Part shown: piece after piece, positions 1 through 57,379 of the stretch
Layout: every line of letters begins with the position of its first letter
Numbering within the stretch: the first letter of the stretch is position 1
NCBI GenBank assembly: GCA_030679255.1
Contig: JAUXTO010000022.1
Coordinates: 915-64,914, forward strand
Source: Candidatus Gottesmanbacteria bacterium
GTDB lineage: Bacteria > Patescibacteriota > Microgenomatia > UBA10105 > UBA927
DNA: 64,000 nucleotides
Direction of reading: 5' to 3'
Translations under genes and position numbers: made by a program
The notes under the pieces: generated by a model
The model's input: the letters and a program-made list of their open reading frames with translations, nothing else
Database searches by the model: none
What the model was told of the DNA's origin: nothing

Positions 1-321
1 TGTCTGACGACTGATAGCTGACGACTGATGACTTTTTGTAAGTAATTGCACGTAAGGGAGAACCCAAAGTGGCCGTTAAACCCTTTGTTCTCCACAACTT
101 CGATCGATTAGTACGAGTAAACTAGAACACGTTGCCGTGCGTACATTTCTCGCCTATCAACGTTGTCATCTACAACGGATCTGAATAACGATTCTTCATC
201 TTGGGGTGGGCTTGGCGCTTGAGATGCTTTCAGCACTTATCCCTTCCGGATCTAGCTACCCTACGATGCCGGTTGTCCGACAATAGGCACACCAGGGATC
301 CGTTCCTCCCGGTCCTCTCGT

Positions 322-1100
322 CAAGTTATTCTCTTATTTCTAAGAGCTTAGACTATATCTTCACCCTGCTCCATTTGGTGCGGGGGTCGGCGTTTGATGG
401 ATTGTTACTCAATCTATCTCACTCCATCGTTGTCGCTTAGCGACATAATGATGGAGATCAGTCGTTACGGGGTCAAACAAAGTATTAAAAATCAAGTATA
501 GCTTTTATAGATTCATCTGTGTATCTCCGCTGGTGCGATTGATAATTATATTCTCGAAGAGAAATAATTACCTCTGCTACTCTCATCCGTTCTTTGTGAC
601 TCATATCAGTCAATTTTTTTCGACAAAGCAACGGAAGAATTTTTAGCAGTAATGCAACTTGTTTTTTCTTAAACCGAATAAACGGTTTAACGAGTTGCAA
701 AATACGATGGGTTTCTTCAAAGCCATTGATACGATATTCCGCCATATGATCATTACGTACAGAAATGTACCCAATGTGAAACATGCGGCGAATCCATCGC
801 AATGGTTGTACATGACGTGCATCCTGATAAAAACAGATTGTGGTCATAATTCGCCAACCAAATTTTGAATCTGATCGACGCTTAATCTGCATCATAATGC
901 TACCGTCACCATCTAAGAAACCTGCTATATACGCTACGTCTTGTATCTTTAATTCTTGTCGACTTCCCACGGTATTATCTTTGATGTTATGGTCCTCTCG
1001 CATCTATCTATCGTACCACAACTATCAGAAGACTTCACCGTTATAAGCCAATTACATTCCGATCTTTACAGATCGGAAGAGCATGACGCTCATCGCGTCT
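322..1100 (-). mobile_element. Group I-type intron in the 23S sarcin-ricin loop region (after the E. coli U2656 equivalent), encoding a LAGLIDADG homing endonuclease
   Basis: Conserved exon sequence ...CCCTAGT | ACGAGAGGACCGG (rRNA sense) is split by 779 nt. In rRNA sense the 5' exon ends in U and the insert ends in G. The insert carries the ORF 485..1003. Confidence 0.75.
485..1003 (-). CDS. LAGLIDADG homing endonuclease (single-motif type), intron-encoded
   Basis: Motif YIAGFLDGDGSI; 172 aa; sits inside the 23S intron. Confidence 0.85.
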   Translation of the reverse strand: MREDHNIKDNTVGSRQELKIQDVAYIAGFLDGDGSIMMQIKRRSDSKFGWRIMTTICFYQDARHVQPLRWIRRMFHIGYISVRNDHMAEYRINGFEETHRILQLVKPFIRFKKKQVALLLKILPLLCRKKLTDMSHKERMRVAEVIISLREYNYQSHQRRYTDESIKAILDF

Positions 1101-1139
1101 ACTAGGGAGAACTCCCCTCAAGAATCGATCGCTTGCACT

Positions 1140-1188
<49 letters not shown>

Positions 1189-1252
1189 CTTTTAACCGGC
1201 GAACAGCCGGACCCTTGGGACCTTCTCCAGCCCCAGGATAGGATGAGCCGAC

Positions 1253-1548
1253 CATGATTGTCCATTGTTTCCAATGGCATAGACTATACCACCACCCTTC
1301 ATTGTGTCATAAGGGTGTCCAGCGTGTGATAGATGTATAAAAAAATTAAATCTATCTCACCACGTTCAGTTTTCATGAACGTGGATCAGTCGTTACGGGG
1401 TTATGATGTGCCACTACGGTACATCAAACTTCCCTCGGTATTACCCTTCACTCCGGTTCAAAAGAGAAAGAGAGTTTCACCGATATGAGCTGAATTATTC
1501 AAAAAGGATTACTCCTTTAGGCGACATGATCCCGACTTCATCGGGATT
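1253..1548 (-). mobile_element. Second, ORF-less intron (~296 nt) in 23S near the E. coli ~2500 region (CCUCGAU | GUCGGCUC)
   Basis: Conserved block GAGCCGAC...ATCGAGGTGCCAAAC is interrupted between 1252 and 1549. In rRNA sense the preceding exon base is U and the last insert base is G. The exact boundary is uncertain by ~1-2 nt. Confidence 0.6.
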
Positions 1549-1595
1549 ATCGAGGTGCCAAACCGCCTCGTCGATATGGACTCTCGGAAGCGATC

Positions 1596-1628
<33 letters not shown>

Positions 1629-2955
1629 AAGCCCGGTCCCTCCCACGAGGGATCCGAGGATCACTAACACCGACTTTCGTCCCTGCTCGGCCTGTACGCC
1701 TCGCAGTCAAGCTGGCTTTTGGCGTTTGCACGACACGTCCTGGTTTCCATTCAGGATTAGCCAACCTTTGTACGCCTCCGTTACACTTTTGGAGGCAACC
1801 TCCCCAGTTAAACTGCCCACCAGACAGTGTCCTCCGCCTAGATTTTTATGTAGGCGTAAGTCAGATTTCCTCATTTCGAAGAGTGGTATTCCAGTGATGA
1901 CCGAAGTCTCCCACCTATGCTCGACAGTCAAAATAAAGTCCTCAGTGTCTAGATGCAGTAAAGCTCCACGGGGTCTTTTTGTCCAAGTGCAAGTAGGCCG
2001 CATCTTCACAGCCATTTCAATTTCGCCGGGTAATGGTTCAAGACAGTCACTACGTCGTTCTACCTTTCGTGCGGGTCGGAACTTGCCCGACAAGGAAATT
2101 CGCTACCATAGAACAATTATAGTTATTGCTGCCGTTCACCGGAGCTTGAGAAATCGGCCTCTTTGATTGCTCAAAGTCACCAACCACTCTTAACTTACCG
2201 GCACTGGGCAGGTGTCAGCCCCTATACGTTGCCTTTCGGCTTCGCAGAGACCTGTGTTTTAGTTAAACAGTCGCGTAGTGTCATTTACTGTGCCCCCGAT
2301 TGCTCGGGGAAGGGCATCTCCCATAGGTTACGCCCAGCTTTTGTTGCCGAGTTCCTTGAACCATTGTCGCCCGCTTGCCTTGGTGGTCTGCCACCAGCGC
2401 ACCTGTGTCGGTTTGCGGTACGGAAAAGAAGTGCTCCCCAACGAAACTTTTCTCGAAAACGAAACTATCTGTGTTGCCTTTGCCTCGCGGCGCGGACTCC
2501 TATTCGCTTTTCAATTAATCGCAATAACGGATTTACCAATTATCACTATTTCAAAGCTTAAATCCCGACGAATCGAGACACGGACACGTTTCATTTTGTC
2601 ATTCCTTTGGGTCTTCATCGACACTCCCTTGTAACGGAATATCAACCGTTTCTACATCGAGCTACGCCATTGTGGCCTCGCCTTAGATCCGACTTACCCG
2701 AAGTCGACGAACGTTGCTTCGGAAACCTTGCGCATTCGGCATGGATGATTCTCACATCCAAACGCTACTCATACCGGCATTCTCACTTCTGTCCGCTCCA
2801 ACCCGCCTTACAGCGGCATCTTCACTGCAAACAGAACGCTCCCCTACCACACTATTGCCTTGCGGCAACAATATCTCAATCTTCGGCCCTTTGCTTAAGC
2901 CTCGATCATTTTCGGCGCCACGGCTTTCATCCAGTGAGCTGTTACGCTTTCTTTA

Positions 2956-2986
<31 letters not shown>

Positions 2987-4455
2987 GTGTCTGTAAACCA
3001 TGACTTCCTTAACCACTGAGCAAAGAGTTAGAGGCCTTAGATGTGAGTCAGGGCTGTTTCCCTTTTGACGCACGAGCTTAGCCCCGCACGTCTGACTGGC
3101 CGAATAACGATGTAAGTATTCGGAGTTTGGTTGAAGACGGTTCCTTGCGAAACCGTTATCATTCAGTGCTCTACCACTCCATCGCTTGATCGGCCGCTAT
3201 ACCAAAATATATTTCGGGGAGAACCAGCTATCTCCGGGTTCGATAGGCATATTACCCCTAACCACAGGTCGTCCCACAGATTTGAAACTCTGACGGGTTC
3301 GGGCCTCCATCCCGCTTTCGCGGGACTTCACCCTGCCCATGGTTAGCTCACCCGGTTTCGGGTCTCATCCGTGCTACAAACGGGCTATTCACCCTCGCTT
3401 TCACTATGTCTCCGTCGCTTGAAGCGACTTAGACCGCAGCACAGAAGAACTCACCGGTTCATTCTTCAATAGGCACGTGATTACCCCTTGCAGGGCTCTC
3501 ACTGTTTGTTAGCTGACAATTTCAGGTACTATTTCATTCCCCTTCCGGGGTGCTTTTCACCTTTCCCTCACGGTACTCGTTCACTATCGGTGCACTCATG
3601 TATTTAGTCTTGGAGGATGGTTCCCCCAGCTTCCCGCAGGACCTTCGTGTCCCACGGTACTTGGGAACGGAATAAAGGTATTGAAAGTTTCGGATACGAG
3701 GCTTTCACTCTCTCTGGCCACCTATTCCGAGATGTTCTCCTACCTTCAATACTCCTATGACTCCCGCCCCACAACCCCACACCTTGCGGTATGGTTTAGA
3801 CTGTTCCGCGTTCGCTCGCCGCTACTAACGGAATCTCATTACGATTTATATTCCTCGCGTTACTTAGATGTTTCAGTTCACGCGGTGCCCCACCCATTGC
3901 TATAACAACCTTACGGCTGCCTTTACGATGGGTTGACCAACTCACGTTGGCCGGATTTCTCCATTCGGAAACCGCCGGATCGCGAGAGTATGGCTCCTCC
4001 CCGGCGACTATCGTGGCCATATACGTCCTTCCTCGGCATGAGCGCCCAAGGCATCCATTGTCAGCTTGTAGCGTTGCAGAGAACAAAAGGTTTTTTTGTC
4101 CCCTTTCTAAAAAAATTATTACCCTCGTTAAAATTTCTTGCGAAATCTTTCATTCGGGCTGAAGGGTGATCCACATATGGATTCCCCCTTACGATGCAAC
4201 TACTTGTATATTTTCTATCCGACCCGGAATTTCACCTTGTCGGATAAAGTCATTATCGTTATTGTTAATGAGCAAGCTCACAATTTAGGAAAAAGTATCT
4301 AGTATAGAGGAATCCTAAATACTACATACTCGTCCCTAACCCCTGCGAAATTTCTTACGTTGTGGACCCGGGCAGAGTTTTACCCCGTACCACCGCTCTT
4401 GCGAGGTCCCGCTAAGCGGGACGAGCAAGTAAGGTTGGTTCGGGGCGAACCGTCC

Positions 4456-50498: not shown

Positions 50499-50684
50499 AT
50501 GCAACAACCTCCACTCGAAGCAGTCATCAGAATGCAACCAAAAGGTGTCATCACCATCCCAATAAAAATGCGTCAAGCGCTCAACATAGAGACAGGTACA
50601 TTCTTGCGGCTGACAGTAAACCATAATCAAATCATTATCGAACCCCTTCGGATTGTCCCCCACCGCTCCACCACCAGTACCTAA
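50499..50684 (+). CDS. AbrB/SpoVT/MazE-family antitoxin-like protein
   Basis: KGVITIPIKMRQALNIETGTFLRL. Confidence 0.55.
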   Translation: MQQPPLEAVIRMQPKGVITIPIKMRQALNIETGTFLRLTVNHNQIIIEPLRIVPHRSTTST

Positions 50685-50713: not shown

Positions 50714-50995
50714 CTACCCCACCCTCCCCAACTCCTTCTCCACCCGCTCGACGAGGAACATTTTCATGAGCGACTGGTACGGCACGTCACGCTTGTTGGC
50801 CATTTGTTTAAGACTGGCCAAGAGCCATTCGGGGAGTCGCAACGAAATCGAATTCGTCGTTAATTTCAAATTGGGAAATATTACCCGTTCCGCCTTACTG
50901 GTATCAAAATAGTCTGTGACATCGTGTGATGACCAAAATTCAAACTCTTGTATTTCGTTTTTAAAATCCGGAGTCTTTTTTAATTTCTTCTGCAT
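50714..50995 (-). CDS. BrnA-like (CopG-type) antitoxin, no obvious BrnT partner
   Basis: ISLRLPEWLLASLKQMANKRDVPYQSLMKMFL. Confidence 0.5.
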   Translation of the reverse strand: MQKKLKKTPDFKNEIQEFEFWSSHDVTDYFDTSKAERVIFPNLKLTTNSISLRLPEWLLASLKQMANKRDVPYQSLMKMFLVERVEKELGRVG

Positions 50996-51023: not shown

Positions 51024-53672
51024 TTACAACAAACTCATTTGTTCTTTCGACGCGTCCACGAGGGGTTTATCTTCATCGTCGCGCCAGAGTTTCACGACAC
51101 CAAATACTCCGTCATACCCGGGATCGATGACGAGATCCCCACGTCGGACTTTATCGATACCTTCAGCTATCCTTGCGCCCGCAACCTTCGTAATTTCCTC
51201 TATAGTCGCGTTCAGAAGCACATTAAACTCCCCACCCAATGCATCTGTCAGCGTCATGTACGGCCCCTGTACCTTGGGGCTTGCAACCGGTGATCCAATA
51301 CACTCATGAATTATCTCTTGTAAGGGTACGAGCATCACAAACGGCGGCCTGTTTGGAAATTTCTTGCTTCCCGTCATCCGAATTGTTTTCTTATCTGACA
51401 GCTGACCCGCTTCGCCGGAGCTTGAGCGAGGCGAGTAGTTGACAGCTGATAGCTTGAGTGATTCCTCGCTCCTCCCTGCCAGCTGTTCAACTCTCTGCAC
51501 GACACCCTGGACAAGCGGTTTCCCACACACAGGACACGTCGTCCCCTTCTTTGCCGTCTCCTCGGGACCCCACCGTATCCCGCACGCCCGGTGCCCCGAC
51601 CAATGATACTTCCCCTCTTCGGGATAAAATTCTATCGTATAAGCAATCTTAGCTTTCAGCTTTCTGTCTTCAGTCTTCAGACTTGAAGAACGTATCGCAT
51701 CATAAATCATCTGATAGCTGAGAGCTGACGACTGACGACTAGTCTCAAATACCGTCGCTTCCCTCCCCAACTTCGGCCCCGAGTGCGCATCGGAAAAAGA
51801 CAGAATCGATCGATGATCAAGTTCCTTGATGCGCCAATTCATCGCCGGATTACTCGATAACCCCGTCTCTATCGCATAAATATGCTTTGCATACGGCCCA
51901 AATGCCTCATCCAGACTCTCAAACCCACCCTTCTCGCCATAGACCGAGAACCACGGAGTCCAGCAATTATGAACAACCGCATACTCTGCGATATATGAAT
52001 GATCCTTTTCCACCTCCAGGTTATAGACATCGCCTTCATACACTTTTTTTGTTATTTCCTTTATCGGCAAATAGACGTTCATTTTGTCGATCCATCCATG
52101 CCTACGGTCCAACGTTGTTTGCGACTTCGGCATTTCTTTTTTGAGATCAAACGCATCCTCAAAGAAAGAAAGATTTGACATTGAATAGAGATCATAGTTA
52201 AATTTTATCACCCGGTTGCCAATTTTATGATTACCTATTCTTTGATGCACCGCTTCATTATTTATGATAATAGATGGAATAATACCCAGACGAAGACACA
52301 CAGCTTTCATCTGATGTACCAACATTCGCGACGTCGTATATCCACGATCTCCCCTATACCACCCGCGGAGACATTCTGCTTGTGCAGCAGCATCTGCCAT
52401 TAGGAGCACAGATGGAATCATTTTATTGCTTGCGGAATGTTTTTGTCCTGGTGTGTAGCATTGGTGAGCGAACCACTGGGCATGGAGTTTGGAATAATAA
52501 ATAATTTCCACACCTTTTGTCTGTTTCCGACGATACAGTCGATTGTAATCAATGCCAAGTACGTTTTTCACTAATTGAACGACATCATCGATATATTCCT
52601 GTTCCTTTTCAGAAAAACAAAAGGAAAAACTATTGTCGCCGTCCGTGGACCCCTCCGCAATATAATACCCGACCAATCTACCCAAATCCGACGTTATGGG
52701 AATTCTGTTTTTCAGCACTCTCCCCCGTGTTCCCCCGGCGCGAATTAAACTTTCGTGCCCTCCATTTACATCCAAATACATATCTGTTTCGCGCTTCATC
52801 GTTTGCGAACGTGGATATACGAGCATATCACCTACGGTTAAATCTTCTGCCTTAACCCATGCTGGTTTATACTTCAAACATTCTTTTCTTTTGCAAAGAG
52901 AAAGGTGCGATCTGCTGGGTCGGCATATATCGCCGGTACTCGAACACTTCTTAATTGTTTGGATAGCATAATATGGATGCTCCGGCGTCGTCACAAGCCC
53001 GGGACGGAAGTACCAAGGTTGTACATGAAGAACAAATCCTTTATATGAACGTTTTTTTACTTCTGTAACGCTATGCAGCTCACCGGTGTGTGTTAACACA
53101 CCATCACCTTCTACAATTTTGTCGATACGTTTCGGCACAAAATTATCTCCCAATATCATCGAATCAGGGAGAAGACAATGCGCCGGTATGATCAACGCTT
53201 TAGGCTCTATAGCCAACACGAGTTCGGCTATATGGATGCAGGAAAGCCCCACGATAGGCCGACCGTCGCTCATGAGATTGCAGCCGCGCTTCGTCATCTC
53301 CTGACTAATTTTCCGGGCAGACGCAATGGTCGGCACCCAGATGAGTGTATGCACCCGCCGGACTTTCCCGCCCTGGGAATAAATCGAAGAAACTTCGGTA
53401 GCAAGCATAAAATGAGGACTTTTGACTTTCTTGCCCGCCGTAGCTTTAGCGGAGGTGGGTGACTTTTGACTTTTGACTTGTAATAACCCATTCCCCAACT
53501 CCACCAGATCCCTCTCTATCTCCCGAAACCACATCGGGTGCATCCAGTCGCCTGTCGCGACCAATCCTATCCCCTTCCTCCTCGCCCACGCGGCAATATT
53601 GGGGATAGTCATAGCCGGCGACACCGCACGGGAAAAATGGGAGTGGAGCTGTAAGTCGGCAATAATCTGCAT
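51024..53672 (-). CDS. PHP-domain protein (EndoQ/TIGR00375-like?) with C-terminal zinc ribbon, interrupted by a LAGLIDADG intein
   Basis: N-terminal ADLQLHSHFS PHP motif. Intein Cys1 ...AH|CLLPDS..., LAGLIDADG blocks LVGYYIAEGSTDGDN and LRGWYRGDRGY, C-terminal VVHN|C. Extein resumes CWTPWF...SFSDAHS; later CPVCGKPL. Confidence 0.7.
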   Translation of the reverse strand: MQIIADLQLHSHFSRAVSPAMTIPNIAAWARRKGIGLVATGDWMHPMWFREIERDLVELGNGLLQVKSQKSPTSAKATAGKKVKSPHFMLATEVSSIYSQGGKVRRVHTLIWVPTIASARKISQEMTKRGCNLMSDGRPIVGLSCIHIAELVLAIEPKALIIPAHCLLPDSMILGDNFVPKRIDKIVEGDGVLTHTGELHSVTEVKKRSYKGFVLHVQPWYFRPGLVTTPEHPYYAIQTIKKCSSTGDICRPSRSHLSLCKRKECLKYKPAWVKAEDLTVGDMLVYPRSQTMKRETDMYLDVNGGHESLIRAGGTRGRVLKNRIPITSDLGRLVGYYIAEGSTDGDNSFSFCFSEKEQEYIDDVVQLVKNVLGIDYNRLYRRKQTKGVEIIYYSKLHAQWFAHQCYTPGQKHSASNKMIPSVLLMADAAAQAECLRGWYRGDRGYTTSRMLVHQMKAVCLRLGIIPSIIINNEAVHQRIGNHKIGNRVIKFNYDLYSMSNLSFFEDAFDLKKEMPKSQTTLDRRHGWIDKMNVYLPIKEITKKVYEGDVYNLEVEKDHSYIAEYAVVHNCWTPWFSVYGEKGGFESLDEAFGPYAKHIYAIETGLSSNPAMNWRIKELDHRSILSFSDAHSGPKLGREATVFETSRQSSALSYQMIYDAIRSSSLKTEDRKLKAKIAYTIEFYPEEGKYHWSGHRACGIRWGPEETAKKGTTCPVCGKPLVQGVVQRVEQLAGRSEESLKLSAVNYSPRSSSGEAGQLSDKKTIRMTGSKKFPNRPPFVMLVPLQEIIHECIGSPVASPKVQGPYMTLTDALGGEFNVLLNATIEEITKVAGARIAEGIDKVRRGDLVIDPGYDGVFGVVKLWRDDEDKPLVDASKEQMSLL
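51966..53177 (-). mobile_element. Intein (404 aa) with a LAGLIDADG homing-endonuclease domain inside the PHP-domain gene
   Basis: Bounded by Cys (residue 166) and His-Asn (568-569), followed by a Cys +1; contains two LAGLIDADG motifs. Confidence 0.7.
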
Positions 53673-53916: not shown

Positions 53917-54738
53917 TTATGATAGCATGTCTTTGAGCAATTTTTTATACCCTTTCTGAAAAATCCTGATGACGGATCCGGTCGGCCGTTTCTTTTTCCG
54001 ATAAATCTGTCCGCCCAATTCATACCCTCTAATATGTTTCGGAGATTGACCAGTGATCAGTACGCGCAGGATACCCTTGGCATACACCTGCAAAAATCTC
54101 ATTCTCCCCTGCTCTCTATACCGTCGAAACGATTGAATATAAAGTGTTTCCCGGATGATGGTGAGAGGAATCCCTAGTCTTGCTAATTTTTGTGTCAGAT
54201 CATAATCCTCCCCAAACGTCCGTGTTTGGTCGTACCCACCGGTGCGTTCAAAAAGGGCTTTTGTTACCCCAACGACCCCGGCGGCAATTGGTTTTTTTAC
54301 CATGAGTGCACCTTCTATCATCCCAATAGCAAGAAGCGACACGGCTACATCGGATGGATTAGACGTATCAGGGCTATACCAAGGAGTAAAAAATTGATGA
54401 TTACCATCAGAGATATACGTTCGTATGCGTTCAATACAATATGGATACAGGATGACATCCGCATCGATAAATACGAGATAATCACCGGTCGCCCGGCCCA
54501 CTCCCAAGTTTTTCTGATATGATACCCCAGCTTTTCCCGCATGAACAATTGATAGATGAGGCACCTTTTTTATGTACAATTGGGCTACCTCAACAGTCTT
54601 ATCCCCTGATTCCCCGTCCACGATAATCACTTCAAAATCTTGGTCATGTTGTTCCATCAACGAATCCAAAAGGTGCGGAAGAAACTTTTCTTCGTTCAGC
54701 GTTGGGATGATTATGGAAATCGTTGGCTTCTGACTCAT
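53917..54738 (-). CDS. Family-2 glycosyltransferase
   Basis: ISIIIPTLNEEKFL ... VIIVDGESGDKT ... FIDADV (DxD). Confidence 0.8.
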   Translation of the reverse strand: MSQKPTISIIIPTLNEEKFLPHLLDSLMEQHDQDFEVIIVDGESGDKTVEVAQLYIKKVPHLSIVHAGKAGVSYQKNLGVGRATGDYLVFIDADVILYPYCIERIRTYISDGNHQFFTPWYSPDTSNPSDVAVSLLAIGMIEGALMVKKPIAAGVVGVTKALFERTGGYDQTRTFGEDYDLTQKLARLGIPLTIIRETLYIQSFRRYREQGRMRFLQVYAKGILRVLITGQSPKHIRGYELGGQIYRKKKRPTGSVIRIFQKGYKKLLKDMLS

Positions 54739-54741
54739 ATA

Positions 54742-55563
54742 TTATTGAAATAATTTTACTATGGACTTGAGATGCAACATGATATCCGCAACGACCTTTT
54801 CATTCCATGTTACATTATTTTTATTATAAAGTTGCCCGCCCATGATAAACCCCGGAACTCCGTCCGGTGATTTGTTGGTGAGTAATACAGATATTGCGGA
54901 GTAGATGTACGCTCCCATTGCGCCAAGCATTCCTTGTTTTCTGTATCGTCTGAGTGAATAGACACAAAGCACCTCGCGTAATACGGATAGGGGTACATGT
55001 TTTTTATACAACCGGGTAGAAAAATCGTGGTCCTCGCCAAACGCTTTCTGTTCGTCATATCCGCCTACCCGGTCAAATATATCTTTTCTTACCACAACAA
55101 ACGGCCCCGGCGACCACGGGCGCTTGACGAGAATATAACCCTCAATGACAATGTTATTGAGGAGTATGAGAATAGCATCTTTGATCTCCTCACTATCGGC
55201 GCGGAACCACGAAGTGAAAAACGGGGCCTTCATGGTATGAATATGATCAATGCACCGCTGGATCAGATACGGCAAGGCGACCGTATCGGCATCGACAAAT
55301 ATATACCACGATCCGTGCGCGTGTTTTGCTCCCAAATTCCGCTGATATGGCAGGCTCGCCTTCTCTCCAACCAGAACCCGCAAGGATGGAAGTTTTTTCT
55401 CAAATGATTTGGCCACTGCCACGGTCTTGTCTTTCGATTTCCCATCGACGACAATCACTTCAAAGTTTTTTTGGGATTGTCCGGCAAGCGACTCCAGAAG
55501 ATGCGGTAAAAACTTTTCTTCATTGAGGGCCGGTATGATGACAGAAAATAAAGGATTCTTCAT
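54742..55563 (-). CDS. Family-2 glycosyltransferase (tandem paralog)
   Basis: FSVIIPALNEEKFL ... VIVVDGKSKDKT ... FVDADT. Confidence 0.8.
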   Translation of the reverse strand: MKNPLFSVIIPALNEEKFLPHLLESLAGQSQKNFEVIVVDGKSKDKTVAVAKSFEKKLPSLRVLVGEKASLPYQRNLGAKHAHGSWYIFVDADTVALPYLIQRCIDHIHTMKAPFFTSWFRADSEEIKDAILILLNNIVIEGYILVKRPWSPGPFVVVRKDIFDRVGGYDEQKAFGEDHDFSTRLYKKHVPLSVLREVLCVYSLRRYRKQGMLGAMGAYIYSAISVLLTNKSPDGVPGFIMGGQLYNKNNVTWNEKVVADIMLHLKSIVKLFQ

Positions 55564-55615: not shown

Positions 55616-57379
55616 TTAATTTCTATTCCCCCCCTGCTCCCGATACATTTTTTTGATCTCCTCGACACTCGTGGCCTGAGCGGGTGACTTATCCGTCCGT
55701 ATTCTCACTAATCTTGGGAAACGGACGGCAACGCCCGCCCCGTGCGTGGACGATTTGGTGAGATCGTCGCCCGCTATTTCCACAACGATCTTCGGCTCTA
55801 TCCACACGTCCGGCTCAAGCATTTTCGGGACCTCAGGATATTGCTTCGGTCTGATACCTGACGACTGACGACTGAACGCTGTTTTTAGTGATTTCCACAT
55901 TTCGTCCGTCACTCCCGTACCAATTTTTGTAATCGTCACAAAATCCTCTCCTTTTCTTACCCCCACGAGAAACGCGCCAATCCCAAACCCCGCCCTTTTT
56001 CCTTCTCCACGGTAGTAGCCCATGACGACCGCATCGATGGTGTCGGTAAGTTTGCCGATCTTGCCTTCTTCTTCCTTAAATTTCACCCAGCTGTACCCGC
56101 GCCTCCCGGGCTCATAGGGACTATGCCATTTTTTCACGACCGCCCCTTCTAAACCTTTCTTTATTTGTTCGTCATGATATGACCGGATTCTCTCCGGGGA
56201 ATCCGTCACGATTTGCGGAGCAATCACGAGCATACCTCCCCTATCACCCTCTTTGATTGTTTCTTCCAAAATCTTTCTTCTCTCCGACAGTGGAGTACTG
56301 AGCAAATCCTTCCCGTCTTTATAGAGGATGTCAAAAACGAAAAATTTGAGAGGAACTTTCAGAAGCGACGCTTGGATATCGTGCTTCCTCTTACGTGTCG
56401 ATGTCTCCTGAAATGGGATAAGCTTGCCGGTCGCCGGATCCATCCCCACCGCCTCACTGTCTAAAATAACGTCGTGAGCGTTCAACTGCTTTCCAACCTC
56501 TTGCAACTCCGGAAACATCTCCGTCGTATTCTCCAAATTCCTCGAAAACGTCTTCACTCTTTCTATCTTGCTATTTTGCTCTCTTGCTATCTTGCTGTAA
56601 TGAATTTGCACCCTCACGCCATCATATTTCCCTTCGACGGCGACCTCTCCCATCTTTTTGATCATTTCATCCGCGGTTGGCAGGCGCTGGCAAAGAGACG
56701 CAAGGATCGGCGCGCCGACGACGGCTTTTACATGAGACAGCCCCGCGATCCCGCGCTCTTTAATTTGTGTTGCGAGAAGCCCGATGTCCGGCCGGATATT
56801 GTAAACTTCCTCGAGCCTCTCTCTTTGAGTTTTATCACCCGCAAGCATCCAGGACAGGGCGTCGAGGATCGTCATGTCCGAAAACCCGAGTCGGAGTTTA
56901 TCCAGTGGTATCCGCACAAAATACCGTACAGACAATGCATCGAGGGATCCTAAAAGTTCTGCAAGTGCTTCAATCTTCCCCTCCTGCGACCCCTCTCCCC
57001 CCATCCCCGTAATTTCAACAAGTCGTTGATAAACGTTATCGATTGTTCTATTCTTTCCCTGATTCCTGATTCGGGATTCCTGATTCGATATATGCTCGGC
57101 GGCCGCTCCCAAATCTCCAAGTTTCCCAAACGCTCGTTTCACAATCTCATCCTCTACTCCATACGCTTTGGCGATAGCGCGTATCATCAATTTATCTCCC
57201 ACACCAAACTCGATGGGTTCATAGAGTGGCGCCACACGGCCTTGAAGCAAGTAACAAAGTTTGCCGATTTCCTCGCGACCGGCCTTCGTAAATAATTCTG
57301 CAAGTATCTCCGTCATCGCATTACGGGAGGGGGTCGCCTCAAGCTTTTGAAAAAAAATTGATAATTCTGCAAACGTCAT
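55616..57379 (-). CDS. lig: ATP-dependent DNA ligase
   Basis: Adenylation motif KYDGVRVQIH; 587 aa; contains the in-frame GACGACTGA insert (AFSRQSSGIRPK). Confidence 0.85.
   Translation of the reverse strand: MTFAELSIFFQKLEATPSRNAMTEILAELFTKAGREEIGKLCYLLQGRVAPLYEPIEFGVGDKLMIRAIAKAYGVEDEIVKRAFGKLGDLGAAAEHISNQESRIRNQGKNRTIDNVYQRLVEITGMGGEGSQEGKIEALAELLGSLDALSVRYFVRIPLDKLRLGFSDMTILDALSWMLAGDKTQRERLEEVYNIRPDIGLLATQIKERGIAGLSHVKAVVGAPILASLCQRLPTADEMIKKMGEVAVEGKYDGVRVQIHYSKIAREQNSKIERVKTFSRNLENTTEMFPELQEVGKQLNAHDVILDSEAVGMDPATGKLIPFQETSTRKRKHDIQASLLKVPLKFFVFDILYKDGKDLLSTPLSERRKILEETIKEGDRGGMLVIAPQIVTDSPERIRSYHDEQIKKGLEGAVVKKWHSPYEPGRRGYSWVKFKEEEGKIGKLTDTIDAVVMGYYRGEGKRAGFGIGAFLVGVRKGEDFVTITKIGTGVTDEMWKSLKTAFSRQSSGIRPKQYPEVPKMLEPDVWIEPKIVVEIAGDDLTKSSTHGAGVAVRFPRLVRIRTDKSPAQATSVEEIKKMYREQGGNRN

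Follow-up and report, generated by a model that had tools for sequence, protein, structure and literature searches.

A predicted splicing-competent LAGLIDADG intein interrupts an endonuclease Q-family gene in a Candidatus Gottesmanbacteria genome

We analyzed a 64,000-nucleotide stretch of contig JAUXTO010000022.1 of Candidatus Gottesmanbacteria bacterium (assembly GCA_030679255.1, positions 915 to 64,914 of the forward strand), hereafter called the window, and in it a long open reading frame (ORF) that appears to encode an endonuclease Q (EndoQ) interrupted by an intein (Table 1). The ORF starts at the first in-frame ATG, directly after an upstream TAA stop codon. Residues 166, 569, and 570 of the precursor are Cys, Asn, and Cys, and residues 166-569 map exactly onto 51966..53177, the interval in which a preliminary description made from the letters alone had placed the intein; the boundaries, from C1 to HN/C+1, are exact (here and below, a slash marks a splice junction). 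The strings quoted in that description (ADLQLHSHFS, CPVCGKPL, LVGYYIAEGSTDGD, LRGWYRGDRGY, and VVHN/C) were all found in the precursor. Removal of the intein leaves a spliced extein of 478 amino acids. An arrangement of this kind could also arise as an artefact, if a chimeric contig or an error of gene calling had fused two genes, one for EndoQ and one for an unrelated homing endonuclease; the genome is of an uncultured type, and the exact 882-amino acid product is without an entry in the gene-position index. However, the reading frame is unbroken through both intein junctions, and at least 66 independent genomes, along with some 100 protein clusters, show this in-frame arrangement with the very same junctions. 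We therefore regard an artefact as exceedingly improbable.

The extein with the intein removed aligned over its full length with Endonuclease Q of Pyrococcus furiosus (PfuEndoQ; PDB 5zb8 and 7k30-33; expect value E=4.5e-44). This alignment takes in the PHP domain, the zinc finger, and the C-terminal helical domain, the last corresponding to Pfu residues 290-383, and it bears out the EndoQ-type host that had been put forward tentatively beforehand. One alignment block crosses the splice junction, pairing LIIPAH/CWTPWFSVYGE with LIGPAH/AFTPWTSLYKE of Pfu. The expectation that the two extein halves would be contiguous once the insert was removed was thus borne out, as PfuEndoQ and about 8000 database proteins that match the extein align straight over the junction. 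The best 120 of these homologues are 62-77% identical to the extein and come mostly from Patescibacteria (Gottesmanbacteria and Uhrbacteria). These hits, with the bacterial 23S rRNA match of the window, are the basis on which the host was placed in the Patescibacteria.

The zinc ligands of PfuEndoQ are H8, H10, E76, H84, H139, and D193, and its lesion pocket is lined by the side chains of H139, T142, E167, L170, and D193, with W144 as the probable wedge (PMC5961232). In the window protein, numbered along the spliced product, the zinc-ligand equivalents are Q8, H10, E93, H108, H165, and D224, five of the six being kept, and the pocket and wedge residues are kept without exception (H165, T168, W170, E198, L201, and D224). 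The intein lies directly after His165, the counterpart of the Pfu zinc ligand and pocket residue His139, and directly before the Thr/Trp loop. PfuEndoQ itself has no intein and carries Ala at the +1 position, whereas the window protein has an intein and Cys at +1. Together, these comparisons support the assignment of the host protein to the EndoQ family (TIGR00375/PF27218) of PHP nucleases.

To place the insert among inteins, we used an alignment of 53 inteins from the same insertion site, 376-441 amino acids long, which followed a first alignment of 14; all conservation figures given for intein residues refer to it. The canonical features named in the preliminary description held up in these homologues: splicing blocks A, B, F, and G are conserved, with B and F retained. 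The C-terminal splice region reads VYNLEVEKDHSY ... VVHN/C, and C+1 is present in all 53. The NCBIfam model intein_Cterm (TIGR01443) matched above its cutoff, alongside matches to 'exception' models for intein-containing proteins, and precomputed matches to the Pfam profile Intein_splicing (PF14890) exist for many of the same-site homologues. An AlphaFold2 model of the intein, built on the alignment, reached a predicted local distance difference test score (pLDDT) of 88.3 and a predicted template modeling score (pTM) of 0.89. Its top Foldseek matches in the PDB were all intein homing endonucleases, namely TliVMA (2e-20), PI-SceI, PI-PkoII, PhoVMA, and PI-PfuI (to 1.5e-10), so that the predicted structure agrees with solved inteins in its Hint fold at E down to 2e-20. 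A sequence search of the PDB with the intein gave a weak match only, to PI-PkoII (E=0.013). Sequence and model together support a canonical class-1 intein.

The same domain could alternatively be a non-splicing insertion that the mature nuclease retains, such as a Hint/LAGLIDADG module recruited for DNA binding. Splicing at this locus is a prediction, and a DNA-binding module in a DNA-repair enzyme is conceivable. However, the residues that serve splicing only (C1, TxxH, His and Asn at the last two intein positions, and C+1) are all invariant. At +1, most homologues that lack the intein have Ala, so that the Cys goes together with the intein. Moreover, a retained insertion would split the metal site by parting His165 from the Thr/Trp loop, two elements that are adjacent in the PfuEndoQ active site. 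These points make a retained insertion very unlikely and favor an intein that is excised.

The central part of the intein matched the Pfam family LAGLIDADG_3 above its cutoff (E=2e-8). Both LAGLIDADG helices close on an invariant acid that is followed by conserved glycines (LVGYYIAE175G and LRGWYRGD277xG). The alpha-beta-beta-alpha-beta-beta-alpha fold of LAGLIDADG enzymes was present in the AlphaFold2 model, which also matched the free-standing endonucleases I-DmoI and I-Tsp061I across the endonuclease domain (E about 1e-5). Compared with the three nearest relatives (L001, L002, and L010), identity was 59-73% in the endonuclease domain and 65-82% in the Hint domain. Stop codons are absent from all 52 complete inteins of other genomes.

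The distribution of the intein was assessed in a locus scan with one genome per GTDB species, which returned 204 loci with a relative, of which the best 80 were examined. Sixty-six of these best 80 carry the intein at the same EndoQ site; the other 14 hold inteins that are 25-30% identical and reside in other host genes. The genomes with the same-site intein are labeled Gottesman-, Shapiro-, Roizman-, Nealson-, Gribaldo-, and Wildermuthbacteria, Paceibacterota, Omnitrophota, Woese-, Pace-, Nano-, Micr-, and Aenigmarchaeota, and Altiarchaeota. The allele thus occurs in at least 66 species genomes from candidate phyla radiation (CPR) bacteria, Omnitrophota, and DPANN archaea, that is, in two domains of life. 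Among the 120 closest extein homologues, only one (P0050) has the intein, and the +1 residue of the remainder is usually Ala (AH/AWTPWF). Six intein-less homologues among these 120 (P0007, P0009, P0019, P0023, P0031, and P0048) have Cys at +1 and read AAH/CWTPWF or PSH/CWTPWF instead of the usual PAH/AWTPWF, with a changed residue upstream of the site. Such sequences may have been left behind when an intein was lost precisely, or they may represent alleles that resist the endonuclease. An exhaustive profile search placed the window intein in a very large superfamily of LAGLIDADG inteins: 23,273 representatives fell at or below E=1e-3, and 3,595 at or below E=1e-30.

The intein also differs from its host gene in base composition. 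G+C content at third codon positions (GC3) is 0.39 in the intein vs 0.58 in the extein, and the intein lies below all eight neighboring genes that were checked. Across 52 loci, intein GC3 was lower than extein GC3 in 49 (mean 0.28 vs 0.42; Wilcoxon p=1.6e-9). Intein and host GC3 are correlated (r=0.75 over the 52 loci), which suggests partial amelioration. The patchy distribution and the GC3 deficit fit a mobile element.

Some of our results weigh against reading the gene as an EndoQ with a splicing and mobile intein, and they concern the splicing domain, the host, and mobility in turn. On the side of splicing, the Pfam profile PF14890 fell just under its gathering cutoff (31.3-34.3 bits vs 35.8; E=2.5e-8 at 34.3 bits), with a match that extends across the long endonuclease insertion. 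In addition, Asn386 of block F is invariant at a position where many inteins have Asp. That the intein splices, that it cuts DNA, and that the host acts as an EndoQ are all inferred. Taking these points into account, we are highly confident that the intein in this EndoQ gene is genuine and able to splice.

On the side of the host, the string read in the preliminary description as a PHP-type metal-binding motif (ADLQLHSHFS) is present, but its HxH is QxH, the first His being replaced by Gln, and one zinc-finger Cys is replaced by His. The NCBIfam TIGR00375 score of the extein was 160.9 bits vs an equivalog cutoff of 326.6. These substitutions (Gln8 in motif I and His290 in an HCCC zinc finger) and the score below the cutoff would suit a phosphoesterase of the PHP family that does something other than incise DNA at deaminated bases, and the papers found report no assay of a bacterial CPR EndoQ. 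Against such a function stand the full-length, three-domain homology to PfuEndoQ and the retention of every side-chain pocket residue and of five of the six zinc ligands. Gln8 is a feature of the clade, being present in 113 of the 120 closest homologues, and the Pfu mutant H8A retains about half of wild-type activity (PMC5961232). The four-ligand zinc finger is present, as HCCC rather than CCCC, and its GHRxC also occurs in the CPR and DPANN homologues. Several of the 120 closest homologues, moreover, bear the NCBI name 'endonuclease Q family protein'. A different function is therefore unlikely, and the host would be predicted to act on deaminated bases as an EndoQ.

On the side of mobility, neighbor-joining trees of intein and extein, based on p-distances and without support values, were largely congruent, and pairwise identities were correlated (Pearson r=0.64); incongruent placements were seen for L014 and for L055/L057 with L034/L054. 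Because of this congruence, much of the spread of the intein could be vertical and not due to active homing. We do not make the stronger claim of cross-domain intein transfer independent of the host gene, as it would have to rest on mostly congruent trees of this type.

Congruent trees and correlated identities would be expected if the intein splices but its homing endonuclease is dead, so that it persists as a fixed, vertically inherited, and immobile passenger. The residue after the catalytic Asp in motif 2, which is Arg, Lys, or Ala and not Gly, can be counted in the same direction, and cleavage of the target site is predicted from sequence. However, E175, D277, and the surrounding glycines are invariant in all 53 inteins, and conservation of the endonuclease domain equals that of the Hint domain. 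Once dead, an endonuclease should decay or be lost by deletion, leaving a mini-intein, yet every one of the 53 falls within the length range given above. The patchiness among the closest hosts (1 of 120) likewise speaks against a fixed passenger, and a GC3 deficit that persists points to ongoing transfer. We consider an immobile passenger doubtful, though it deserves some weight; the endonuclease of this intein is probably still active.

A named intein appears to occupy the same site. The InBase intein 'Mja Hyp-1' is one that we take to lie in MJ0043 of Methanocaldococcus jannaschii, a TIGR00375-family protein. NCBI submitters gave the name 'Mja hyp1 intein' to two same-site proteins from Parcubacteria metagenome-assembled genomes, TSC96124.1 and TSD02447.1, the first of which has the same N-terminal junction, IVPAH/CLL. 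The profile TIGR00375 itself pointed in this direction. The C-terminal ~140 amino acids of EndoQ-type inteins match its columns 3-134 (E=5.9e-12 for P0122 and 4.7e-7 for the window intein), as expected if the intein of a seed member ends at exactly this site, and column 135 is where the C-extein begins. TIGR00375 was not matched by a related intein whose host is thioredoxin-reductase-like, and a genuine EndoQ N-extein matched columns 2-49 only (E=2.4e-6), more weakly than the C-terminal part of the EndoQ-type inteins. The TIGR00375 seed alignment therefore probably contains an unmasked intein, and with an intein signal in its N-terminal third, the model would give lowered scores to true family members. 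The Mja hyp1 intein thus probably has the same host family (TIGR00375/EndoQ) as the window intein and, as judged indirectly from profile behavior and NCBI names, probably the same insertion site, although its host is a hyperthermophilic methanogen and the window host a mesophilic-type CPR bacterium. On these grounds, the window intein was classified as a probable member of the already named 'hyp1' allele type. A literature search found no paper describing an EndoQ intein allele.

Same-site EndoQ inteins of CPR and DPANN genomes (L001, L002, L010 from Gottesmanbacteria GW2011_GWC1_43_10, P0050, and P0158) share identical junctions (PAH/CLLP ... VHN/CWTPWF), the LAGLIDADG motifs, and a Cys/His loop with the window intein, at 58-73% intein identity. 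The window intein is nevertheless a distinct sequence, as its best same-site match is 73% identical. The solved inteins TliVMA/PhoVMA (7qsu, 7qss, and 7qst), PI-SceI (1vde), PI-PkoII (2cw7), and PI-PfuI (1dq3) have the same architecture of a Hint domain with a two-motif LAGLIDADG endonuclease, but they reside in different host proteins and compare with the window model at template modeling (TM) scores of ~0.5-0.66 and sequence identities of 9-14%. What sets the window intein family apart from them is a conserved Cys/His loop that follows block B, together with the Asn in block F. Separately, at least one EndoQ homologue (P0154, 1331 amino acids) was seen to contain two inteins, one at the PAH/C site and a second that follows an SDSH motif (...LISNSDSH/CVHPDT ... 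ITHN/SPSHIGREANVF) and adjoins metal-site residues equivalent to Asp193 and His195.

In the Cys/His loop, C85 and C95 are present in all 53 inteins, and position 78 is Cys in 50 and His in three. A candidate fourth ligand, judged by eye and uncounted, is either a Cys at the fourth position beyond C85 or a His (H91 in the window intein). The loop has a pLDDT of 74-79 in the AlphaFold2 model and occupies the topological position of the DNA-recognition region of PI-SceI. We suggest that it may form a zinc knuckle, metal binding being a reading of the conserved ligand pattern. By eye, a comparable Cys-rich stretch was also seen in P0143 and P0148, related inteins that reside in other host genes. 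PAH precedes the intein in 51 of the 53 loci, and its His (-1) is the active-site zinc ligand of EndoQ. Because the -1 residue is a zinc ligand, Cys stands at both 1 and +1, and the Cys/His knuckle is conserved, one can imagine that the intein is more than a parasite, with zinc- or redox-conditional splicing as a switch for EndoQ, or with the knuckle as a new zinc-dependent DNA-recognition module for homing. Either proposal is speculative, and we rate it as a long shot. If splicing were conditional in this way, CPR and DPANN cells would turn on a deaminated-base nuclease through a post-translational switch.

Besides the intein, the window protein differs from PfuEndoQ in having Gln for His8, His for the first zinc-finger Cys, three extra low-complexity loops, and a different C-terminus. 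The loops account for what had been described as two in-frame repeat inserts: three variable extein loops with micro-repeats are there, and repeat arrays are not. Tandem Repeats Finder gave only 7-nt micro-repeats spanning 16-23 nt (at 53460-53479, 51725-51740, and 51662-51684), and a single pair of 13-nt direct repeats lies at 53417/53461, which ruled out a reading of these inserts as tandem or interspersed repeats. The micro-repeats fall in the three low-complexity, lineage-variable loops, where the lengths of homologues differ as well. At its C-terminus, the protein carries what looks like a bacterial clamp-binding motif and not a PCNA-binding one as in Pfu. Bacterial homologues end in QLSLF, QLSIF, or QLAIF, and QLxLF is a known beta-clamp motif, so C-termini of the KEQMSLL/QLSLF type resemble a bacterial beta-clamp-binding motif. 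Archaeal EndoQ interacts with PCNA, and by analogy, the C-terminal motif could be the bacterial counterpart of that interaction. Several close intein-less EndoQ homologues are labeled 'DNA helicase UvrD' or 'UvrD/REP helicase' at NCBI. In the window protein, no helicase domain came up in Pfam and NCBIfam searches, and these labels therefore look like propagated mis-annotations.

A second homing endonuclease gene lies elsewhere in the window. The preliminary description had placed one in a 23S rRNA intron, and a LAGLIDADG_1 ORF was indeed found inside a ~780-nt insertion of the 23S rRNA gene. The spacing of conserved 23S motifs (window 305..1607, minus strand), with the equivalents of E. coli ~2447 at 1607-1593, ~2505 at 1260-1245, and ~2575-2610 at 1184-1147, indicates that the gene carries two insertions. 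The ~780-nt insertion lies between the equivalent of E. coli ~2610 and the sarcin-ricin loop, just 5' of the loop or inside it, and the other is ~300 nt long. Sub-threshold group I intron matches were obtained in both, at 1261-1544 in the shorter and, as the second such match, at 330-580 in the longer. The sarcin-ricin loop was located at 323-305 by an indel-tolerant search, where a search allowing substitutions only gave nothing; as the loop occurs only there, the 3' end of the Rfam large-subunit (LSU) match (1062..4081) is forced. Upstream of the EndoQ gene on the same strand (55616..57379 and 53917..55563, minus) are an ATP-dependent DNA ligase of 587 amino acids with LigN, LigM, and LigC domains and two family-2 glycosyltransferases. 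Downstream are a CopG-type antitoxin gene (50714..50995) and, on the opposite strand, an ORF for a MazE/AbrB-type antitoxin (50499..50684).

Table 1. Coordinates of the interrupted EndoQ-family gene, its intein, and other features of the window (residue numbers within the intein count from Cys1 unless noted)
Feature	Position	Strand	Evidence
Precursor ORF, EndoQ-family nuclease interrupted by an intein	51024..53672	-	882 aa plus stop, intact
N-extein, aa 1-165, first part of PHP domain, ends PAH	53178..53672	-	alignment to PfuEndoQ
PHP motif I, DLQLHSH; Gln8 for Pfu His8, His10 kept	53637..53657	-	PfuEndoQ alignment
Predicted intein of 404 aa (aa 166-569) with Hint splicing domain and LAGLIDADG homing endonuclease	51966..53177	-	family matches, 53-intein alignment, model
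Block A (CLLPDSMILGDNF), Cys1 the predicted first nucleophile	53139..53177	-	C1 in 53/53 inteins
Block B (RPGLVTTPEHPYYA), TxxH motif (TTPEH; T64, H67)	52965..53006	-	T64, H67, P68 in 53/53 inteins
Cys/His-rich loop after block B (intein residues 78-100; C78, C85, H91, C95, plus C100), putative zinc knuckle	52878..52946	-	53-intein alignment
LAGLIDADG motif 1 (LGRLVGYYIAEGSTD; LVGYYIAEG), predicted catalytic Glu175	52641..52685	-	G170, Y171, E175, G176 in 53/53 inteins; Pfam LAGLIDADG_3
LAGLIDADG motif 2 (ECLRGWYRGDRGYT; LRGWYRGD), predicted catalytic Asp277	52335..52376	-	W273, G276, D277, G279 in 53/53 inteins
Block F (YEGDVYNLEVEKDHSYIA)	51987..52040	-	V384, N386, L387, E388, V389 in 53/53 inteins
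Block G (EYAVVHN), penultimate His403, terminal Asn404	51966..51986	-	H403, N404 in 53/53 inteins; TIGR01443
C-extein, aa 570-882, opens with Cys+1-WTPWF, then SDAHS, zinc finger, C-terminal helical domain	51027..51965	-	alignment to PfuEndoQ
SFSDAHS motif; Asp224, His226 (spliced numbering), equivalent to Pfu Asp193, His195	51780..51800	-	PfuEndoQ alignment
EndoQ zinc finger, GHRAC...TCPVCG, HCCC; His replaces first Cys of Pfu	51519..51599	-	PfuEndoQ alignment
C-terminal KEQMSLL	51027..51047	-	homologue C-termini
LAGLIDADG_1 ORF, 172 aa	485..1003	-	Pfam E=1.9e-12

Based on these results, we propose the following course of events. Translation would yield an 882-amino acid precursor in which the intein parts the PHP active site, with His165 on one side and the Thr/Trp loop of the lesion pocket on the other. 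The unspliced precursor would almost certainly be inactive, because the intein separates the zinc ligand His165 from that loop. Splicing would begin with an N-S acyl shift at Cys166, continue with trans-thioesterification to Cys570 and cyclization of Asn569 assisted by His568, and end with an S-N shift, releasing the 478-amino acid EndoQ (...IIPAH-CWTPWF...) and the free intein. As a monomeric, two-motif LAGLIDADG homing endonuclease with Glu175 and Asp277 as catalytic residues, the free intein would then cleave EndoQ alleles that lack an intein, at the strongly conserved site that codes for PAH/(A)WTPWF, and double-strand-break repair would copy the intein in. Homing into intein-less alleles would thereby produce the patchy spread in CPR bacteria, Omnitrophota, and DPANN archaea.

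The window intein does not overturn current understanding, and its insertion between a catalytic zinc ligand and the lesion-pocket loop is a classic conserved-active-site position for inteins. It would tie the old 'hyp1' intein to a host of now-known function. The 882-amino acid product is properly annotated as an intein-containing endonuclease Q, and the names 'hypothetical protein', 'LAGLIDADG endonuclease', and 'UvrD helicase' that homologues bear in public databases should be avoided. The intein family is a source of new LAGLIDADG specificities against a very conserved target of 20-30 bp. The allele, which occurs in CPR bacteria, in Omnitrophota, and in DPANN archaea and is systematically AT-richer than its host genes, is a usable marker of gene flow among ultra-small episymbionts.

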